Assembly: GCA_027622665.1 (NCBI GenBank) | Contig: JAQBYT010000008.1 | Location: forward strand, 71,382-135,381 | Length of the DNA stretch: 64,000 nucleotides | Reading direction: 5' to 3' | DNA from: Verrucomicrobiota bacterium | Lineage (GTDB): Bacteria; Verrucomicrobiota; Verrucomicrobiia; Opitutales; Seribacteraceae | Shown: positions 53,998 through 64,000 of the stretch, in pieces | Numbering within the stretch: position 1 is the first letter of the stretch | Layout: every line of letters starts with the position of its first letter | Position numbers and translations under genes: made by a program | Notes under the pieces: model-generated | Told to the model about the DNA's origin: nothing | Databases searched by the model: none | The model's input: only the letters and a program-made list of their open reading frames with translations

Positions 53998-54510
53998 TCA
54001 TGCGGTATGGCGATGACTTCCTCGAAATCCTGATTTACTCGTCCCAGCATAAAAAAGCGCATTGCAGAGGCCATCCCCATTGTCATTCGACCCGTTAAGC
54101 CTGCCGAGAGGAGGATTGCTCTTGTGGGAATGGGCAGAGTTGGAGACCGTGAGTACGCCTCCCCTCGAGTTCGTTGTCACGCTGCCCTCGCTCCGGACAT
54201 TGATAGGCAGGATGAGATTCAATACGGAGGTGGCGATTGCCAGCCTCGTTCGGGCCTAGGGCGGTTTTGATGACGTTTTCAAAAGTTTCCCTGAGAAGAC
54301 TAAATACAGCGGGAGAGAAATAGGAGTTCGCCGCGCCTTCTGTTGGAAGCCCTTGCATGGTTTTTCGAAAATCGGGATCGTCGCGCAAGTTCGGTTTCGG
54401 GATAAAGAGTTTTTCCACGAAGTTCTTTCTCGTGGCCAAGACAAGCTTTCCGCTAGGTCGATGATGGAGTAGACGGGTTAGTAGACGGCAAATCCTTGGG
54501 CAGCTTCTCC
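53998..54510 (-). pseudogene. Frameshifted gene remnant
   Basis: Protein-like text continues across frames: KLPKDL / IID / LATRKNFVEKLFIPKPNLRDDPDFRKTMQGLPTEGAANSYFSPAV / NLILP...GSVTTNSRGGVLTVSNS; no single intact ORF. Confidence 0.55.
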
Positions 54511-54602
54511 TCCAACTGCAAGCCCACCTTTGCCTCGGACTGGCAATCCAGAACCCACATATTCGTCCATCTCACCTTGTGTCTTTTGATGCTGATTTCC
54601 AT

Positions 54603-54650
54603 GTATTGTTGGCAGTATTGTTGGCAGTATTGTTGGCAGTATTGTTGGCA
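54603..54650. repeat. 12-bp tandem repeat x4 (GTATTGTTGGCA)
   Basis: Four exact copies read directly. Confidence 0.97.
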
Positions 54651-54708
54651 GGACAACCTCCTGAAAGTTGACATGATTTGAGATGAAATGACAATTTACT
54701 AATGCAAC

Positions 54709-54740
54709 AAAAAAGCACATCCCATTGCTGAGATGTGCTT
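54709..54740 (-). terminator. Hairpin/terminator downstream of tRNA
   Basis: AAGCACATC...GATGTGCTT stem with T-run on the minus strand. Confidence 0.7.
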
Positions 54741-54768
54741 ATTTACTGGGGAAACCGCTAATTCAATA

Positions 54769-54845
54769 TGGTACCAAGGGTGGGACTCGAACCCACGACC
54801 CACGGATTATGATTCCGTTGCTCTAACCAACTGAGCTACCCTGGC
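54769..54845 (-). tRNA. tRNA with CAT anticodon, probably elongator tRNA-Met (Ile2 not excluded)
   Basis: GCCAGGGTAGCTCAGTTGGTTAGAGCAACGGAATCATAATCCGTGGGTCGTGGGTTCGAGTCCCACCCTTGGTACCA: 77-nt cloverleaf with encoded CCA; lacks initiator hallmarks. Confidence 0.95.
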
Positions 54846-54998
54846 ACAAAGTAAAAGAAGACATGGTAAGAAGACGAAGAAAGAGAGTCAAGTTTCAAGC
54901 CTTTGGAGAAAAGGGCAAATGGGGGTTTGCCCTTTACGAGCATCCCGTTAGTTAACTATTTCGCAGTAAGTAGCTTTGAATATAATTCCATTTCTCAT

Positions 54999-56534
54999 GT
55001 GAATCAAGAAGATCCCACAGTTCTAGTAATCGACGATGACGCCGAAATTCGGTACTCGATTGATCGAGTCCTTACTAAATTGGGGGTAAGGGTCACGGCC
55101 GCAGACAGTGGAGAAACAGGTATCGAGAAAGCCCAAACCGTAAATCCCGACATAATCTTTCTGGATAACCGTATGGGAGGGATTTCGGGCATCGAGACCC
55201 TGCAGCACCTTCGGACGGCGGCTCCGCAGTCTATGGTGATCCTGATGACTGCCTACGGCACCTCGCAAACGGCAATCGAAGCGATGAAGCATGGTGCATT
55301 CGACTATGTATTGAAGCCGTTCGACCTCAAGAAATTGGAGTCGCTCGTGGCCAAAGCCTTGCAGGCGAGCCGCGACATTCGCGCATCAGGTGAGAAAAAC
55401 GATAATCTGCTGAACTCTGCCGATTATTCCGAAGGCATTGTCGGGAGCGGTGATGCCATGCAGAATGTTCTCAAAACGGTAGGTCAAGTTGCTGCCAGCG
55501 AAGCAACGGTCATGGTAACCGGTGAAAGCGGCACGGGCAAGGAATTGATTGCCCGTTGCGTACATCGTCACAGTCACCGCGCCAAAGGTCCGTTCGTTGC
55601 CGTAAATTGTGCCGCCATCCCTGAAAACCTCATCGAGAGTGAATTGTTTGGTCACGAAAAAGGTGCTTTTACCGGAGCGACGAACTCAAAGGCCGGTCAA
55701 TTCGAGTTGTCCAGCGGCGGTACTCTTTTTCTTGATGAGATAGGCGACATGACCCTCCCTACCCAAACCAAGATTCTACGGGCTATCCAAGAAGGAGAAA
55801 TTCAGCGAGTGGGAGGTACGAAGGTAAAGAAAGTCGACGTTCGCTTTCTCGCAGCGACTAATAAGAATTTGGTTTCAATGGTGAAAACCAAGGAGTTCAG
55901 GGAGGACTTGTACTACAGACTGAACGTAGTCACCATTGAGATGCCTCCCCTCCGGCAGCGGATGGAAGACCTTCCCGAACTGGTCGACTTCATCATGCAT
56001 CGGCTGAATAAAGAAAAGAAGACGGGGGTAAAGGAAATATCCAAGGATGCTCTGGATGCCTTATGCAATTACGATTGGCCCGGCAACGTGAGGGAACTGG
56101 AGAACGCCCTTCACGCTGCATCGGTCGCAAGCAAAGGAAAACGCATTCTGGGCAAGGACTTGCCCTCCCTCCTCAACGCAGGCAAGCGATCCACTGGTGT
56201 CCCAGCTCAGGCAGACAAGAATTCTCCAAGCGACGACCGTTCCTCGCCAAATTTCGGATCTCGAATAGAGCCGAAAGCTCGCGAGGCGGACAAAAGCGAA
56301 TCCACCGGCGAAACGATTTCGACGAGCAGCGTCACCGCTTCCGAATCCTTCGACCTCGCCTACGCCAACATACGGGAAATGTCCGATTCGAATCTCCTCG
56401 CGCTCATAGAAAAAGAGATGATTCAAAGGACTCTGGCCGAGACGGGAGGCAATCAAGTCAACGCATCAGTCCTGCTCGGCATCACCCGGGCTACACTTCG
56501 TAAGCGGATCGACGCCTATGGCATTCGTTTCTAG
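54999..56534 (+). CDS. NtrC-family sigma54-dependent response regulator
   Basis: Receiver (VIDDD, FLDNRM, LKPFD), [28 protein letters not shown], Fis-type HTH; GTG start inferred. Confidence 0.95.
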
Positions 56535-56615
56535 GTGGCCTTGCTTCAGGTTTCGACAGTTCAGGATTTTTCTGAAAGTATTCTATTAATTGCTTGAAAG
56601 CATTTTAGACCAATA

Positions 56616-57860
56616 ATGAATTATTTCGACGAACGTATTGTTGTCACTGGCGTGGGGCTCACTTCCCCTCTGGGAGACGATTTGGACACCTTGCGCGAAA
56701 ACCTCTTGGCGGGTCGTAGTGGGGTTACGCGCTTTCCCGTTCGCAATATGGGCGATCTGCCGGCAGGCGTCTGTGAATTCGAAACTACCCGACATCAGTC
56801 CCGCAAACAGCTTCGCGTAGGTACGAGAGCAGGCAGCATAGGTATCTATTGTGCTCATGAAGCTTTTGCAAATGCAGGTATAGAACCAACCGAAGTCGAC
56901 CGATCTCGGATCGGTGTCTACGTGGGCATCACCGAACACGGAAACGTGGAAACGGAAACGGAGGTCTGCCAACTGTTCGACCATTACGATGAAGATGTCA
57001 AATTTTGGACTCACCACCACAATCCGCGAACGGTAGCGAACAATCCCGCCGGAGAAATTACCATAAACCTTGGCCTGACCGGCCCGCACTACACCGTGGG
57101 TGCGGCCTGTGCCGCAGGTAATGCAGGAATCATACAAGGCGCTCAAATGCTTCGTCTCGGCGAGTGTGACGTGGCTCTCGCCGGTGGAGCAAGCGAAAGT
57201 ATTCGTGCCTATGGCATCTTTGCTGGATTCAAGAGCCAAGGGGCTCTCGCTCAACACGAAGACCCCACCAAGGCGAGCCGACCCTTCGACAAGAACCGGA
57301 ACGGGATCGTGGTAAGCGAGGGCGGATGCCTTTACGTTCTCGAACGTCTTTCCGACGCCAAGGCACGTGGAGCTCGAATTCTAGGCGAGATTGCTGGATA
57401 CAGTTTGAATTCCGATGGTACCGATTACGTTTTGCCTAATCCCGAGAGGCAGGAGGAATGCATTCGTCTGGCTTTGACAAAGGCCAGCCTGACACCTGCC
57501 GACGTCGATATTGTGAGCACCCATGCCACTTCCACTCCCCAAGGGGACGAGCAGGAGTGCACTGCCCTGCGAGCCGTCTTCGGAGCGAGCGAGGGAACCT
57601 TCGTGAACAATACCAAAAGTTTTATCGGACACGCCATGGGAGCGGCCGGAACCCTTGAACTGGCAGGCAACCTACCCTCTTTCGATGACGGAATGGTTCA
57701 CGCAACCATCAACGTCGAAGAACTTGATCCCGCCTGCGACCTTCCCGGACTCGTTTGTGATGAAGCGAGAGAGACGAAGGGCGTGGAAGTGATTCTCAAC
57801 AACTCCTTCGGCATGCTTGGAATCAATTCAGTTCTTATCTTGAAAAAGTTTCACAACTAG
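56616..57860 (+). CDS. Beta-ketoacyl-ACP synthase (FabF-like, non-housekeeping subfamily)
   Basis: Cys-His-His triad (GAACAAG, HATST, KSFIGHAMG), SRPFD, NNSFG. Confidence 0.93.
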   Translation: MNYFDERIVVTGVGLTSPLGDDLDTLRENLLAGRSGVTRFPVRNMGDLPAGVCEFETTRHQSRKQLRVGTRAGSIGIYCAHEAFANAGIEPTEVDRSRIGVYVGITEHGNVETETEVCQLFDHYDEDVKFWTHHHNPRTVANNPAGEITINLGLTGPHYTVGAACAAGNAGIIQGAQMLRLGECDVALAGGASESIRAYGIFAGFKSQGALAQHEDPTKASRPFDKNRNGIVVSEGGCLYVLERLSDAKARGARILGEIAGYSLNSDGTDYVLPNPERQEECIRLALTKASLTPADVDIVSTHATSTPQGDEQECTALRAVFGASEGTFVNNTKSFIGHAMGAAGTLELAGNLPSFDDGMVHATINVEELDPACDLPGLVCDEARETKGVEVILNNSFGMLGINSVLILKKFHN

Positions 57861-57887
57861 CCTATCAATATTTCTTTTCCGAATTAA

Positions 57888-58148
57888 ATGGATAAAGAAA
57901 AGGTAAAACAAATTGTCTTGGACATTATTGCCGAGATCGCTCCCGACGAGGATTTGACTGACGTCAAGCCCGAGATTCGCCTGCGAGATCAGCTCGACTT
58001 GGACTCGATGGACTTCCTCGATATTGTAATGGAGTTGCGCAAGCAGCATGGCATTGAGGTTCCCGAAGCCGAATATCGACAACTTGAATCTCTCGATAGT
58101 TCGGCAGAATATTTGTTCCCGAAATTCGAGGCTAAGGCGGTCGCCTAA
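57888..58148 (+). CDS. Acyl carrier protein
   Basis: Acidic 86 aa; LDLDSMDFLDIVMEL phosphopantetheine Ser motif. Confidence 0.94.
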   Translation: MDKEKVKQIVLDIIAEIAPDEDLTDVKPEIRLRDQLDLDSMDFLDIVMELRKQHGIEVPEAEYRQLESLDSSAEYLFPKFEAKAVA

Positions 58149-58167
58149 GCCTTCGCCACCCTACCCC

Positions 58168-59625
58168 TTGCCCGAAGCGCGTCGGAAACCCGAAGCCCTG
58201 GACGGGCAGCATTTCGAAGTAGTCGTCATTGGCGCAGGCATGGCTGGCCTTGCATCGGCTCTTCGCTTGGCCATGTTCGGGAAGAGCGTATTGCTTCTGG
58301 AAAAGCATTTCGTCGTAGGAGGACTAAACAGTTTTTTCGCGCGTGGAGGACGCAAATTCGACGTGGGTCTACACGCCGTAACGAATTTCCCGCCAAACGG
58401 TTCAGCGAAAGCTTCGCCTTTGATTCGCCTCTGTCGTCAATTACGCATCCCGTTCGAGGAACTTGCCCTGTCTCCGCAAAGTTTCTCTAGGATCGCCTTT
58501 CCGGACGTCGACTTGAGGTTCGACAATGAGTTCGCCTTTTTTCTATCCGAAGTGGAACGCCTATTCCCCCGCGAACAAGATCGTTTTCAAAAGCTTCTCC
58601 GGACAATGGAAGCGTTCGATGCATACTCGCCGGAAGTTGCGGGCGACGTCTCGGCTCGCTCTATTCTTAGTGAACACCTTCGAGAACCTCTTTTGATCGA
58701 AATTCTCTTGTGCCCGACCTGCTACTATGGTTCGGCCGTCGAAAACGACATCGACTTCGCGAGTTTCGTAATGCTCTTCGATGCCATTTTTCGCCAAGGG
58801 TTAGCCCGCCCGCTTGACGGCATTCGGCGTTTCCTCGATCCCATTCTCAATCGATATGAAGAAATGGGCGGACAACGCCGGATGAACCTCGGGGTTAAGC
58901 ATATTGTAACGAAAAACGACAATGTGGAACGTCTTGAACTAGACAATGGAGAAAGCATATTCGCGGATCACGTAATTTCCACATGCGGCGTAGTTGAAAC
59001 TGAACGGATGCTTTCCTCCACCTCGCAGGATGAAAACGCCGATGACGTCGGTCGCATCTCCATTCTCGAAAGCATCGCGGTTTTCAAGGAACAGCCCGCA
59101 GACTTCGGTTGGGAGGAGACCATCGTGTTCTATAACGACGCCGACGTTTTTCGCTACGAACGACCGGATGGGCTAACGGATCCGCGTTCGGGCGTCATCT
59201 GCATACCAAACAACTACCGGTATCCCAACGGGGAACAAATGCCTGAAGGTCAATTACGCGTCACCTGTCTGGCCAACTACGAAAAGTGGGTCGCACTCGA
59301 TGAAGACACCTATCGGTCGCAAAAAGAAATCTGCCGAAAAGCCATGCTCGACATTGCTCTTGGCTACCTACCCAATGGAAAGTCCATGGCGGAAGATCTG
59401 GAAGAACGCACCGAACTGCTGGATATCTTCAGCCCCCGCACCATCACAAAGTTCACCAGTCACCTCGATGGAGCCCTCTACGGTTCACCTCGCAAATCAA
59501 GGAATGGTTCAACCCAGTTCAGCAATCTGTATCTGGCGGGAGCAGACCAAGGCTACGTCGGCATCGTCGGGGCAATGTTGGGAGGCGTCGCCGTAGCCAA
59601 TAATCGTATCCTCCGCGGCGATTGA
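58168..59625 (+). CDS. FAD-dependent oxidoreductase, phytoene desaturase/RetSat-like family
   Basis: VVVIGAGMAGL, LLEKH..VGG, FDVGLH, SPRTITKFT..GALYG, NLYLAGADQGYVGIVGAM; TTG start inferred. Confidence 0.9.
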   Translation: MPEARRKPEALDGQHFEVVVIGAGMAGLASALRLAMFGKSVLLLEKHFVVGGLNSFFARGGRKFDVGLHAVTNFPPNGSAKASPLIRLCRQLRIPFEELALSPQSFSRIAFPDVDLRFDNEFAFFLSEVERLFPREQDRFQKLLRTMEAFDAYSPEVAGDVSARSILSEHLREPLLIEILLCPTCYYGSAVENDIDFASFVMLFDAIFRQGLARPLDGIRRFLDPILNRYEEMGGQRRMNLGVKHIVTKNDNVERLELDNGESIFADHVISTCGVVETERMLSSTSQDENADDVGRISILESIAVFKEQPADFGWEETIVFYNDADVFRYERPDGLTDPRSGVICIPNNYRYPNGEQMPEGQLRVTCLANYEKWVALDEDTYRSQKEICRKAMLDIALGYLPNGKSMAEDLEERTELLDIFSPRTITKFTSHLDGALYGSPRKSRNGSTQFSNLYLAGADQGYVGIVGAMLGGVAVANNRILRGD

Positions 59626-59627
59626 CT

Positions 59628-60077
59628 TCAGGAGATCTCGCGAATCAAACCTTCCTGTATCTCGGCCAGCAGGATATACCCGAAATAGGCGACTCGCACG
59701 TTCTGCGGTAAATTTTCGATCCGGATGCGACCGTTCTCCAAGTCCTCGTCGCTCACGGAATTCAAACCGTGTTCACGCAAATGTATTCGCAACTCGGTCA
59801 TTCCTCGTAGGGCATCATCCACATCGTCAACGGGAATCTCGACCTGACCTTGGGCAAGCTTGGGATTCCCCAGCAAACGGGAAAAGGCCAAGCGATCGGC
59901 GCGACCGTCCTCAATCAATCCTTCGCGCCAAGCTGCGTCCAAGTCCTCGTCGCCCGAGTCGGGCGGAGCAAAACGTTCCTCTGCAAACCGTCCACTTGTC
60001 TCTCGAAACACCTTGCCCAAGAAGGGCAGCAAGGCTTCGAGAAAAGAGGGAGAAACCTGAAGCTCGAACTCAATCAT
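59628..60077 (-). CDS. DUF2017-like protein, overlapping clpS
   Basis: Acidic helical protein (DDALRGMTELRIHL...YILLAEIQEGLI); 8-bp overlap with clpS, matching the known clpS-DUF2017 pairing. Confidence 0.65.
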   Translation of the reverse strand: MIEFELQVSPSFLEALLPFLGKVFRETSGRFAEERFAPPDSGDEDLDAAWREGLIEDGRADRLAFSRLLGNPKLAQGQVEIPVDDVDDALRGMTELRIHLREHGLNSVSDEDLENGRIRIENLPQNVRVAYFGYILLAEIQEGLIREIS

Positions 60078-60441
60078 CCTTTTCCAGCGACGCCTGCAGG
60101 CGCCAACGATGCAGTTGGTATACGTAACCTTCGGCTTGCTCGCGTTCTCCGATCCAAAGCACGGACCTACCCAACTCATGCACTTCTTTCATGTGATGGG
60201 TAGCTTGTGTTTCATCGTAACCGAAAACCTTTCTAAACACCATCACGACGTAGCTCATTAGATTTACGGGGTCGTTCACAACGAGCACTTTCCAGGGGCG
60301 AAGCAACTCGTCCTGTTCTTCGGTCTCGACCTCAGGTAGGGTTTCGGTCTCTGGAAATAGTGAGCTAATGATAAGTTTCTGAAAAAAGGTAATGGAGAAT
60401 AGAGAGTTTTCCAACAACGGGAAAGGGGAAAGAATGCGCAA
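60070..60441 (-). CDS. clpS: ATP-dependent Clp protease adaptor
   Basis: PWKVLVVNDPVNLMSYV, MKEVHELGRS, EQAEGY; true start uncertain, probably nearer 60370. Confidence 0.92.
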   Translation of the reverse strand: MRILSPFPLLENSLFSITFFQKLIISSLFPETETLPEVETEEQDELLRPWKVLVVNDPVNLMSYVVMVFRKVFGYDETQATHHMKEVHELGRSVLWIGEREQAEGYVYQLHRWRLQASLEKDD

Positions 60442-60495
60442 ATTCCAATTTTTCCATGCTTGCCTGTTCGCCTCATTATTAGTTTTCTTTCGATC

Positions 60496-62124
60496 ATGCT
60501 AAAAATTCCGACATTCGTCCTTGGTGGATTATTGATCATGACGGGCTTGGTGGGTTATCTCTTCCAAGACCCCAATCTTTCGATAAACATCGTTGGGCCG
60601 CTCGCGGACGATGCCGTGTTCACGCTGTCCGATGGCAACCGGACTCACACCTTGGACAGAGGCTTTGCCTCGAGTAACTCGGCGGGCGAACATGCATTCT
60701 GGTTGATCGAAAGATTGAATCAGAATCACGCAAAGGATCGCTCACAAGGTAATTATGCGGCTAGTGAGAGGCCCGATAATCCCGCTTATAAGGCCCAATC
60801 CTTTTGGTATGCTTCATCCACCGGAGACACCTTGGCTGCGCTGATTGAGAATGCCGAAACCGGGAACCTTATTTCTCTGGATCAAGTCGACGCAAACAAG
60901 TCAAAAGTCCGATTCATCTACAAGAAAGCTGTCGATGGCGACGGTCCCGTCACTCTGACATCGACCAACTGGATGAACGTCGAGGGCGCGCCCGGAGCGG
61001 GAGAACCATTGACTTTCGGAAAAAGTTGGACAGCCCTGATACCTGGGATTATCGCCTTGGTCCTGATCGCTTGCGTGCTCGCAGCCGAAGCCAAGCCCGC
61101 GTTGCGGAAGCACATCATGCACCTTGCCGCTACCGTTGGATTGGTTGGTTTGGTAATGTCCGCCAAGAAGATTATTCCTGCATTCAGCGAGATGGAGTGG
61201 CTGAAGAAGGACCCGAACGGAATCATTCACGCCTCCTCTTTGAAGCCGGTCGTTATGTTCTTCTCCGCCGGTTTGCTGTTCATATTCGTTGTTCTTTGCA
61301 TCCTTTCTTTCATTAACGCCCGCAGGGAAATGGCCGCGCAACCCAAACCAAAGAAAGAGGAAAAGAAAAAGGAGGACGATTTCGAGGACGACGACGATGA
61401 AGATGAGGACGACAACGATGAAGATGAGGACGACAAAGACTCGCTCAAGGCCAAAGAAAAAGCCAAGGACGATTCCGACGACAAGAAAAAGGACGCCAAG
61501 TCCCCCGCCAAGCCTATGGGAGCCACTCCCAAGAAAGGGGAAGGCAAATTGAAGACTTCCAAATCGTCCGAGTCCCCATTGGGCGAAAAGAAAAAATTCA
61601 GGTCGCCGGGAACGCCGAAGTCAATTGACCCCGAAAAGGCAATGAGACCAAAATCCAGCGATGGGCAAAGAGATGGAACGCCCAAACCATCCGAAAAAGC
61701 CAAACCTTCCAAACCACGATCCGGGGAACCCACGCGGGATGAAAAGCCCGAAGCTCCAAAATCGTCCCACCCCGAAAACTCCAAACCTCGGGAAAGCGAC
61801 AAAACCTCGGTTGCCGAAGCGGATACGGAAAAGAATTCGGAACCGACCGAATCCGGAAACTCCAAACCTTTCGAACCACGATCCGGAGAACTTAAGCGGG
61901 ATGAAAAGCCCGAAGTCGAAAAATCGTCCGACCCCGAAGACTCCAAGCCTCGGAAAAGCGACAAAGCTGAGGTTGTGGAGGAGGATAAAGGCACATCGGA
62001 TTCAGATGCCGGAGACTCCAAGCCAGACATAGCCTCTGCGGACGAAGGCAAGGAAGATTCAGGCAAACGCGAGGGCGACAAACAAAAGGAATCGCCAGAG
62101 TCGTCTAAAAAGAAGCAAGACTGA
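60496..62124 (+). CDS. Four-TM membrane protein with inserted soluble domain and long charged disordered tail
   Basis: TM1, about 150-aa soluble segment, SWTALIP...LRKHIMH TM motif, then D/E tract and K/P/S/E-rich tail. Confidence 0.8.
   Translation: MLKIPTFVLGGLLIMTGLVGYLFQDPNLSINIVGPLADDAVFTLSDGNRTHTLDRGFASSNSAGEHAFWLIERLNQNHAKDRSQGNYAASERPDNPAYKAQSFWYASSTGDTLAALIENAETGNLISLDQVDANKSKVRFIYKKAVDGDGPVTLTSTNWMNVEGAPGAGEPLTFGKSWTALIPGIIALVLIACVLAAEAKPALRKHIMHLAATVGLVGLVMSAKKIIPAFSEMEWLKKDPNGIIHASSLKPVVMFFSAGLLFIFVVLCILSFINARREMAAQPKPKKEEKKKEDDFEDDDDEDEDDNDEDEDDKDSLKAKEKAKDDSDDKKKDAKSPAKPMGATPKKGEGKLKTSKSSESPLGEKKKFRSPGTPKSIDPEKAMRPKSSDGQRDGTPKPSEKAKPSKPRSGEPTRDEKPEAPKSSHPENSKPRESDKTSVAEADTEKNSEPTESGNSKPFEPRSGELKRDEKPEVEKSSDPEDSKPRKSDKAEVVEEDKGTSDSDAGDSKPDIASADEGKEDSGKREGDKQKESPESSKKKQD
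61702..62025 (+). repeat. 162-bp (54-aa) imperfect internal tandem duplication
   Basis: KPSKPRSGEPTRDEKPEAPKSSHPENSKPRESDK (from 61702) vs KPFEPRSGELKRDEKPEVEKSSDPEDSKPRKSDK (from 61864). Confidence 0.9.
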
Positions 62125-62151
62125 CCCGAAGCCCATTTATTCCACCCCCCG

Positions 62152-62185
62152 AAACGCCGGCCATCGAGCCGGCGTTTTCATTTTT
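62152..62185 (+). terminator. Rho-independent terminator
   Basis: AAACGCCGGC-catcga-GCCGGCGTTT followed by TCATTTTT. Confidence 0.85.
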
Positions 62186-62299
62186 GGAAGCAATTCGAAA
62201 AGTGTGGATGTCTCCACATGCGCTCTGTTCGAGTTCCATGACGAAACTTCCATAAGTCATTGGTTTTAAATGAATCCGATTTTCTTTTCACTTTTTAAG

Positions 62300-62326
62300 T
62301 AAAGTTTTGTTGGTGTCGGTCGATTG
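62300..62326 (+). promoter_or_regulatory. Sigma28 (FliA)-type promoter of the flagellin gene
   Basis: TAAAGTTT-N11-GTCGATTG vs consensus TAAAGTTT-N11-GCCGATAA; 120 bp upstream of the ATG. Confidence 0.65.
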
Positions 62327-62446
62327 TTTAACATGAAAAAGGCGACAAAAAGGTCGCTACCGCATGCAAGTTTCACTCCCTACAAGGTGTAGGAGGTGAA
62401 GTAAGCGAGAACTGCCTGAGGTTAGTGCCTCAAAGCAGCAAATATT

Positions 62447-64000
62447 ATGTTAGGAGGAAGCGTACAGTTAGCCAAATCGACCTCTCTCTACATGGAGAGC
62501 GCCCACAGGAATTTATCCCGTGGTCTTAACCGCCTGTCCTCGGGAGTCAAGCTATCCACCGGCGTAGACGATGCAGGAGGGCTAGGCGTCTCGATGAATA
62601 TCGGGGCCAAGCTCAAGAAGGCTTTCAAAGTGCGCGAAAATGTGCAAAACGCCAGATCCTTTCTGGAACAACAAGACGCGGCCCTTAGCTCCATGGGCAA
62701 GGTGCTTGACCGTATGGCGGAACTACGCACGAAAATCGACGATGTGGTAGCCGGACGATCTGATCGCGAACTCTACAACAAGGAGTTCAAGGAAATGCAA
62801 TCTGAGATACTCTCGATGAGAGGCAGAAAGTTCAATGGCGTAAGCATCTTTTCAACCGACGCCAAGGATCCCTTGTCCTTTTATATTCCAACCTCCGAGG
62901 ACGGGATTTCCACGCAGGTAGCGATTAACAGAACGGGTTTCTTCGATAGTCTCACCATCGGAAGTTCGACGCCGGGGTCCACTCCTTCCACTACCTTCAA
63001 TGGTGTTATTGGATCTTTCGCGGGAAGCGTACTGGGTAATGCCGGTGGCGCCATCACCTCCGTTACTCGATCCCCCGTGAGTGGTCTTCACGCCACTCCT
63101 ATTGATTTTACGATTGCAGCCGGAGGCACGGTCGCCGATTTTCCCGCCACTCCTCTTATCGGAGCATCCCCTGCCGTCGGCATAACCGTTGCAGCCGGAG
63201 GCACGGTCGCCGATTTTCCCGCCACGCCTCTTATCGGAGCATCCCCTGCCGTCGGCATAACCGTTGCTGCCGGAGGTACTGTCGCCGATTTCTCCGCTAC
63301 TCCGGTGAAGGGAGCCCACACGGCGATTCCCGTAACGGTAGTCGAAGGTACGCGCACCACGGTGACGGCTACGGCACTTCAAGGAACGGGTTCTCGTACC
63401 GAAAACGTAACCGCTTTTGCAGGCGAAGAGATCAGCATCCCAACCACGGTCACCGTAGGTGGTAACGCAGCTGAAATTCCGGCTTGGACTGCAAACCCCG
63501 TGACACCTAACGGAAATCTCTCCCAACAAGGCGTAACCGATAGTTTCGGCAACCTCTGGTTCGTGACCGACGACGGTGTTGTGCAGAAAGTCGAAGGTGG
63601 CGATCCTGCCGCCGCAGGCACGGGGGTTTTGACGACCATCCCGAGCCTTAATGGTGCAGATTACGTTTCAAAGTCCATCATCTTGGATATTTCAGGACAG
63701 GAGTTCATGTTCGTTGCCGGGCAAGACGGTCCAAATGACGCCAGGCTCCATAAGATCAATCTCTCAACCGGCGCCAGACAAGAATTCGCCCAAGTCAGCG
63801 GAGGCAATGAAAAACTACGAGGACTAAGTGAGCAGAATGGAAAGCTCTACATGGCTTACAGTCGAAGTGCGGGATTTGGCCAGACAAGAGGGGAGATCGT
63901 TCGCGTAAACTCCGACATGACCCGAGACAATGGTTGGGGAAATAGTTCCGGAAGGGTCATGAATACCAGTGCGCATATTGGCTGGGATTTCGGCAATGAC
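62447..64000 (+). CDS. Large flagellin-family protein (partial, at least 518 aa)
   Basis: Hand translation: ...RNLSRGLNRLSSGVKLSTGVDDAGGLGVSM...NVQNARSFLEQQDAALSSMGKVLDRMAEL...DRELYNKEFKEMQSEI...KFNGVSIF (Flagellin_N); frame open to the window end; not in ORF track. Confidence 0.9.
   Translation, partial: MLGGSVQLAKSTSLYMESAHRNLSRGLNRLSSGVKLSTGVDDAGGLGVSMNIGAKLKKAFKVRENVQNARSFLEQQDAALSSMGKVLDRMAELRTKIDDVVAGRSDRELYNKEFKEMQSEILSMRGRKFNGVSIFSTDAKDPLSFYIPTSEDGISTQVAINRTGFFDSLTIGSSTPGSTPSTTFNGVIGSFAGSVLGNAGGAITSVTRSPVSGLHATPIDFTIAAGGTVADFPATPLIGASPAVGITVAAGGTVADFPATPLIGASPAVGITVAAGGTVADFSATPVKGAHTAIPVTVVEGTRTTVTATALQGTGSRTENVTAFAGEEISIPTTVTVGGNAAEIPAWTANPVTPNGNLSQQGVTDSFGNLWFVTDDGVVQKVEGGDPAAAGTGVLTTIPSLNGADYVSKSIILDISGQEFMFVAGQDGPNDARLHKINLSTGARQEFAQVSGGNEKLRGLSEQNGKLYMAYSRSAGFGQTRGEIVRVNSDMTRDNGWGNSSGRVMNTSAHIGWDFGND
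63116..63340 (+). repeat. 75-bp (25-aa) coding tandem repeat, two near-identical units plus a diverged third
   Basis: Units start at 63116, 63191 and 63266: AAGGTVADFPATPLIGASPAVGITV. Confidence 0.95.

Follow-up and report, generated by a model that had tools for sequence, protein, structure and literature searches.

The gene and its probable continuation on a second contig

The stretch of DNA analysed here, hereafter the window, comprises 64,000 nucleotides of contig JAQBYT010000008.1 (C26) from the genome of a Verrucomicrobiota bacterium of the order Opitutales (the source genome, G000), and it ends within a gene for a giant flagellin (Table 1). As a preliminary description of this DNA had reported, the open reading frame (ORF) at the end of the window begins with a Flagellin_N domain (PF00669, residues 8-137, E 1.3e-12, 48.4 bits against a cut-off of 26.6), and the three blade-like peptides quoted there are all present in its translation. 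The C-terminus is absent from the 518-aa ORF because contig C26 stops at the window end. The C-terminal flagellin domain that the description had not yet encountered (Flagellin_C, PF00700, cut-off 23 bits) is present in the complete orthologues P0001 (1,819 aa; 39.1 bits) and P0002 (1,647 aa; 42.5 bits), both of which also carry Flagellin_N. Complete relatives span 1,485-1,819 aa, above the 1,000 aa used to delimit giant flagellins.

The candidate 3' part is an open frame at the end of contig C14 (Flagellin_C with 36.3 bits), which is 88% identical to the C-terminus of P0001 and faces secA. A convergent secA also lies downstream of the complete orthologues in genomes G005 and G006, a common synteny. 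Furthermore, a natural protein, P0178, matches the last 107 aa of the window at 90.7% identity and shares its C-terminus with the C14 piece. Inside the source genome no overlap was found between the ends of C26 and C14, and other contigs did not bridge the gap. The full-length protein is predicted to be near 1,820 aa, and we regard it as practically certain that the gene encodes a full-length flagellin.

As for the class of the protein, the N-terminal D0/D1 part gave 59 sequence matches in the PDB, every one a flagellin, and D0/D1 is 90-98% identical among seven orthologues. In a tree of 19 rows, the ten stalk flagellins described below form one clade (98/100), with FlgL, a long branch, outside. 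No full-length flagellin cut-off was reached in NCBIfam. The label FlgL, given by one source, was rejected in view of the PDB matches, the tree and the presence of a separate FlgL in the flagellar cluster.

The relatives are assigned to Opitutae/Opitutales in their source records, and the 14 sequencing runs that contain half of the window or more are aquatic, marine, seawater or estuary metagenomes, among which the source itself may be present. With the propeller half of the ORF as query, matches were obtained in 4 of 8 genomes of the same genus and in none of 52 more distant ones. Base composition, a weak test, gave no hint of a horizontal arrival of the insert.

Table 1. Coordinates of the giant flagellin gene, its parts and its associated sites (positions are those of the window unless a contig is named)
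Feature	Position	Strand	Basis or remark
5' part of giant flagellin gene, 518 aa	62447..64000	+	ORF open at 3' end
N-terminal D0/D1 flagellin helices, aa 1-173	62447..62965	+	Pfam PF00669, aa 8-137
Thin arm of stalk, aa 174-338: 13 predicted donor strands, each Gly-led and 11-13 aa long	62966..63460	+	165 aa = 13.3 x 12.4
Three 75-bp (25-aa) tandem repeats, two strands each	63114..63303	+	blastn self-match, 93% over 115 nt
First ~180 of ~398 aa of BamB/PQQ-like beta-propeller head	63461..64000	+	predicted fold
Sigma28 (FliA)-type promoter-like site: -35 TAAAGTTT, 11-nt spacer, -10 GTCGATTG	62300..62326	+	13/16 bases of sigma28 consensus
Candidate 3' piece, 442 aa: 5 stalk units and Flagellin_C	G000:C14:53168-54493	-	5'-open frame at C14 end

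The predicted two-armed stalk and propeller head

The three tandem repeats behind the D0/D1 region were previously taken for a spacer. The repeats are there, and count matching together with modelling suggests that they are instead part of the thin half of a two-armed rod. In P0001 a strand arm of 165 aa precedes the head and 13 units of ~70-80 aa follow it; the units were found by profile, since blastp missed the internal repeats. The window does not reach the thick half of the stalk, which measures up to ~975 aa. The 25-aa repeat has its counterpart there in a 152-aa two-unit repeat (unit spacing 72/80 in P0001).

The length of the arm follows the number of units. For 13 of the 15 arms compared (without P0005 and P0007), arm length equals 12.3 x units + 2.9 with r = 0.9987, and for all 15, one of them a row that joins two overlapping contigs of G003, r is 0.92. 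In G009 and G013 the polarity is swapped along the stalk: the first four strands stand opposite the last four units, and ten N-side units stand opposite ten C-side strands. The rule also fits L021, a secreted non-flagellin with five strands and five units. In a fresh test, 12 proteins examined later yielded six scorable new arms, five of which matched, three of them being closely related to a single fitted row; P0171 was excluded as a twin of the paralogue on contig C49, and five proteins had no complete scorable arm.

The pairing was also modelled as a complex with AlphaFold, using strands 1-4 of the window and the last four units of the C14 piece, with the antiparallel register written down beforehand. 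The complex scored 0.69 and the best of three controls 0.00; in a calibration that is rough because our own alignments were used, 116 of 157 solved pairs and 2 of 215 mismatched pairs attained this mark. The runs agreed in at least 93% of the contacts, with a partner pLDDT of at least 81, and in the best contacts strand 4 met the first unit of the set and strand 1 the fourth, with strands 3 and 2 in order between them, antiparallel as predicted. The model supports, without proving it, a one-to-one antiparallel pairing of strands and units. We consider it highly likely, on counts and model, that the stalk is a zipper rod in which each unit would be completed by a strand of ~12 residues from the opposite arm. 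A strand extends by ~3.3 Å per residue, and an arm of 165 residues would then reach about 50 nm.

Among the 12,604 frames of the source genome, stalk units were found in the C14 piece and in the C49 paralogue only. The stalk profile, run on 7,999 scored candidates, gave 20 proteins among the matches listed, all of them flagellin-type or fragments thereof. The stalk has no sequence relative in the PDB (best E 0.13) and no Pfam family of its own, its units giving weak Pfam matches to Big_6, Filamin and MG2; a search of the ESM Atlas returned no usable match and one weak lead to Flagellin_IN proteins (0.75). The loci L013:648-6947, L014:1755-7985 and L016:679-7599 encode stalk flagellins of 2,077-2,307 aa; two of these proteins flip strand/unit polarity in mid-stalk, and one has two propellers and LamG. 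In L021:1-4542 (G009:C6), which encodes the non-flagellin surface protein, cadherin, C-type lectin and LamG domains come after the stalk.

The head is almost certainly a beta-propeller, as had been supposed from its blade-like units; the fold was predicted from the model of an orthologue, and its best fold matches (BamB, YxaL and WD40) are non-catalytic scaffolds. Pfam and NCBIfam do not recognise the propeller of the window, and the best PDB sequence match has an E of 0.44. In six of six sequences the propeller measures 398-408 aa and contains no Cys, Asp-box, RIP or FG-GAP motif; the whole of P0001 is devoid of Cys, and neither P0001 nor P0002 has a peptidase match in Pfam. We therefore consider the head very probably non-catalytic and, judging from these sequences, likely to bind its target rather than cut it.

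The alignments show that heads vary and recombine on a near-identical D0/D1. Mid-propeller identity between the three head types is 42-50%, as against 90-98% for D0/D1, and conservation within the propeller is lowest in the central blades. P0173 carries a different head on the same D0/D1. In P0003 the arm (43-53%) and the stalk (45-47%) diverge together, and the head is 92-96% like that of P0001. The same propeller (65%) is present in P0011, a non-flagellin surface protein that begins with a signal-peptide-like sequence and also has cadherin and DUF285.

The promoter-like site and the flagellar repertoire of the host

The sigma28-like promoter attributed to the gene is indeed present, and its position is kept in the three orthologues checked (-146 to -148); similar sites lie 130-145 nt ahead of three paralogues. 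Equally good sites number 51 in 9.03 million genome positions, which makes a single match weak by itself. Expression may be driven by sigma28. RNA-library contigs of two studies begin at 62346 and 62365, a weak hint, and those of three studies cover parts of 62346-63576 and also the upstream gene, without a silent control. The leader of ~120 nt (62330-62446) is conserved in the orthologues and has apparent hairpins and GGA motifs; against Rfam it gave a chance match only (E 0.72). A control of this leader by CsrA is possible.

The description of the gene as standing alone, with no flagellar genes upstream, holds locally: none was found among the ORFs of 54000-64000, the part of the window scanned. 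At the level of the genome it does not, as the gene is one of 14 Flagellin_N matches. These and the 12 Flagellin_C matches are not copy numbers, and the Flagellin_N set includes FlgL. The source genome also encodes the flagellar export genes that the same description had tied to a filament protein, with FlhA (E 4e-241) and FliS, and a cluster on contig C3, read by eye from translations, holds a full flagellar set with FliA, MotAB, FliW and CsrA; FliD was recognised too. The cluster and the oversized hook-junction proteins, likewise assigned by eye, lie at G000:C3:20920-55135, C8:9870-12775 and C15:50912-54410; the latter comprise a FlgK-like protein of 1,083 aa and a FlgL-like one of 1,065 aa, and a FliD-like cap exceeds 2,000 aa over two contigs.

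Short canonical flagellins are encoded on C8 and C66. Flagellins lie on C8, C14, C30, C44, C55, C58 and C66, three or four of them short and one of 938 aa. The repertoire includes one HEXXH flagellinolysin-like flagellin (C30), one C-type-lectin-like flagellin and several with apparent frameshifts or stops (C44, C58, C42), and further paralogue inserts are of the propeller-LamG kind. The second stalk flagellin (G000:C49:57227-62023; L011:3228-8024) has a PQQ_2 propeller, LamG and nine units, with an in-frame TAG. Since P0171 (31 members) is intact and identical to it at 1,598 of 1,599 positions, this stop should be strain-specific or an error. A 41-nt stretch upstream of this paralogue recurs ~430 nt outside the region covered. 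Very large repetitive surface proteins, with open frames of ~1,900 to more than 4,000 aa, are broken at the ends of several contigs (C1, C3, C28, C30, C34).

Flagellin_C was matched in 30 of the 36 relatives of the same family (f1, G001-G036), up to 21 times per genome, and 0-4 times per genome in 24 genomes of other families. Chemoreceptors (MCP) were not found in the source genome, which is 93.5% complete, and were found in 1 of the 36 family relatives; outside the family, 14 of the 24 genomes have them, among these 8 of the 9 that bear flagellins. CheW was not found in the source genome either. These negatives rest on metagenome-assembled genomes and on kin, and mean not found rather than absent. 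The flagella of this lineage appear to work without chemotaxis.

In the window, a conserved membrane protein of unassigned family, with a long Lys/Glu/Asp/Pro-rich tail with internal repeats, is encoded upstream of the flagellin gene (60460-62124), and ketosynthase-like, acyl-carrier-like and desaturase-like genes, named by eye, lie side by side at 56616-59625.

Probable place in the filament and relation to known systems

We lean towards reading the protein as a giant accessory flagellin, in which a rigid two-armed rod would carry a binding propeller as a minor part of a filament of short flagellins. It would be transcribed late from the sigma28 promoter and exported unfolded, presumably through the flagellar type III channel, and through D0/D1 it would take its place among the short flagellins that make up most of the filament; its incorporation there we judge probable from the sequences. 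The chain would run out as a thin strand, fold the propeller and zip back, one unit per strand, and the head would probably bind polymers, particles or cells, with a role in catching or adhering.

Several points weigh against this reading. The join of C26 and C14 is deduced from synteny and homologues and was not read through. The propeller model was made on an orthologue and is of middling confidence, and the controls of the complex model were unrelated proteins, not composition-matched strands. In the count comparison, arm boundaries were set by motifs of our choosing, a 54-aa insert was removed in two rows, unit matches below 7 bits were dropped and many rows are kin. P0170 is one off in the fresh test (12.2 vs 11; 12 strands and 11 units), and P0005 (11 strands, 9 units) and P0007 (13 and 9) do not match; both of the latter have exactly one copy of the 152-aa repeat, and their mismatch could come from an assembly in which the 456-bp repeat collapsed into a single copy or, equally, from surplus strands. 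Finally, the D0 tips (the first ~8 and last ~15 residues) are unlike those of the short flagellins of the source genome, and the Pfam scores are below theirs (52 vs 83-92 bits for the N-terminal and 40 vs 58-72 for the C-terminal domain), so that polymerisation is not assured.

The diverged tips and lower scores favour a protein that uses flagellar type III export without entering the filament, as a released or cell-associated adhesin or matrix protein in which D0/D1 would act as export signal and clamp. The gene lies apart from the flagellar cluster, and stalk and propeller recur in non-flagellin surface proteins (L021, P0011), which fit the same explanation; non-filament flagellin homologues are known in Vibrio. 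We nevertheless consider it rather improbable: despite variable outer parts, identity in the two D0/D1 halves remains at 89-99%, which suggests a packing constraint, and a 50-nm rod is most sensible if anchored to a filament. Moreover, flagellinolysins and flagellins above 1,000 aa do assemble, as the consulted parts of PMC5595980 and PMC6248924 report.

Within the filament, the role of the heads could instead be protection, by shielding or as decoys, against grazers or phages that bind the flagellum, and not the capture of food or surfaces. Such a role would account for head and stalk types that diverge strongly and swap on a constant core, and for the many paralogues per genome in the family. 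It is unlikely, however, given that paralogues have recognisable ligand or substrate domains (LamG, C-type-lectin-like and HEXXH inserts) and that the same head is reused in the adhesin-like P0011. Still less likely is a propeller acting as an enzyme in the manner of flagellinolysins, for example on algal polysaccharide, as its closest folds are non-catalytic, no Cys, Asp-box or RIP motif was found in it and its central blades are the least conserved. A reading close to the original view, with a flexible Thr/Gly/Pro spacer and with self-contained Ig-like domains as C-terminal units, has in its favour the low-complexity composition, the weak Pfam matches of the units and the three count mismatches, and is very improbable in the face of the count matching, the swapped-polarity cases and the one-to-one complex model.

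Returning to the accessory flagellin with a zipper rod, its elements can be compared with known systems. Like the split D2/D3 Ig-like domains of flagellins, and like the donor-strand complementation known from pili, the stalk would build its domains from outgoing and returning segments; unlike them, it iterates up to 13 times in one chain, its polarity can flip within a protein, and a secreted non-flagellin contains the module as well. In comparison with BamB, YxaL and PQQ_2-type propellers, the head is internal to a flagellin and has no lipoprotein signal, and unlike the BamB lipoprotein it does not stand alone; the shared fold shows no function. PQQ quinoprotein dehydrogenases have a catalytic propeller of ~550 aa with vicinal cysteines, and sialidases have Asp-boxes and a RIP motif; neither the size nor these residues are those of the head.

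The preliminary description knew of no flagellin with this architecture. This does not stand for its parts, as propeller-bearing and giant flagellins have been catalogued (PMC11532411, cluster 55; PMC6248924); for the zipper stalk, no description was found in the literature searched, most subscription papers being outside reach. According to the available text and table of Fields 2024 (PMC11532411), cluster 55 has 40 members in which Flagellin_N and Flagellin_C flank a beta-propeller ("WD40-repeats"), as here, known there from AlphaFold models only. At least 35 of its 40 rows span 545-712 aa, many with FG-GAP_3, which leaves little room for a long stalk, whereas the protein studied has no FG-GAP motif or Pfam match and an outer region of more than 1,200 aa, compared with ~280-450 aa. 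Cluster 55 contains no Opitut* row (of 33 in that table) and no Verruco* row (of 10), and the longest row so labelled has 679 aa; these rows include peptidase, Lectin_C and LamG flagellins, and the table has no PF13360 or PF13570 label.

Thomson 2018 (PMC6248924), in the parts consulted, gives 92 PF00669 proteins longer than 1,000 aa and does not settle how their repeats fold, asking whether the path might run out and back; Verrucomicrobia are unmentioned in its main text. The present protein is likewise above 1,000 aa with repeats in the insert, but in those giants, which are main flagellins, two DE regions stand in tandem; in the present case a head is combined with 9-13 asymmetric domains of strand plus unit, and short flagellins are encoded alongside. 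From the accessible part of Eckhard 2017 (PMC5595980), 61 insert domains were found in flagellins, and their table may list a propeller. As in the flagellinolysins described there, which assemble into filaments, a foreign functional domain sits in the hypervariable region; unlike them, the head has no HEXXH peptidase, gave no catalytic motif on inspection and would stand on a long rod, HEXXH being found in the C30 paralogue. Flagellin diversity is high in Verrucomicrobia according to the consulted part of Hu and Reeves 2020 (PMC7018530). In the part of PMC8857213 available, flagellar proteins of marine MB11C04, which might conceivably be the same family, appear in metaproteomes, and the cells are mostly unattached, which would argue against surface adhesion.

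What would be new is thus the count-matched zipper rod and a family-wide flagellin repertoire without chemoreceptors found, the propeller itself having precedent. The rod offers a testable answer to how a bulky head could be extended by tens of nm with both ends in the filament core, a question that PMC6248924, in the parts consulted, leaves open for giant flagellins. With the rod, the flagellum can probably present an exchangeable binding head well away from its surface. Heads and inserts of different kinds are accommodated (propellers, LamG), which makes the rod a natural scaffold for flagellar display. For the ecology of this marine heterotroph lineage of seawater and estuary metagenomes, the findings suggest flagella used for capture or adhesion instead of chemotaxis. 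More tentatively, the flagellum of marine Opitutales may be a non-chemotactic capture brush, with a dozen or more flagellins bearing proteases, lectins and propellers, some of them on a self-zipping rod whose length would change by matched duplications on both sides and which would be reused in secreted adhesins.
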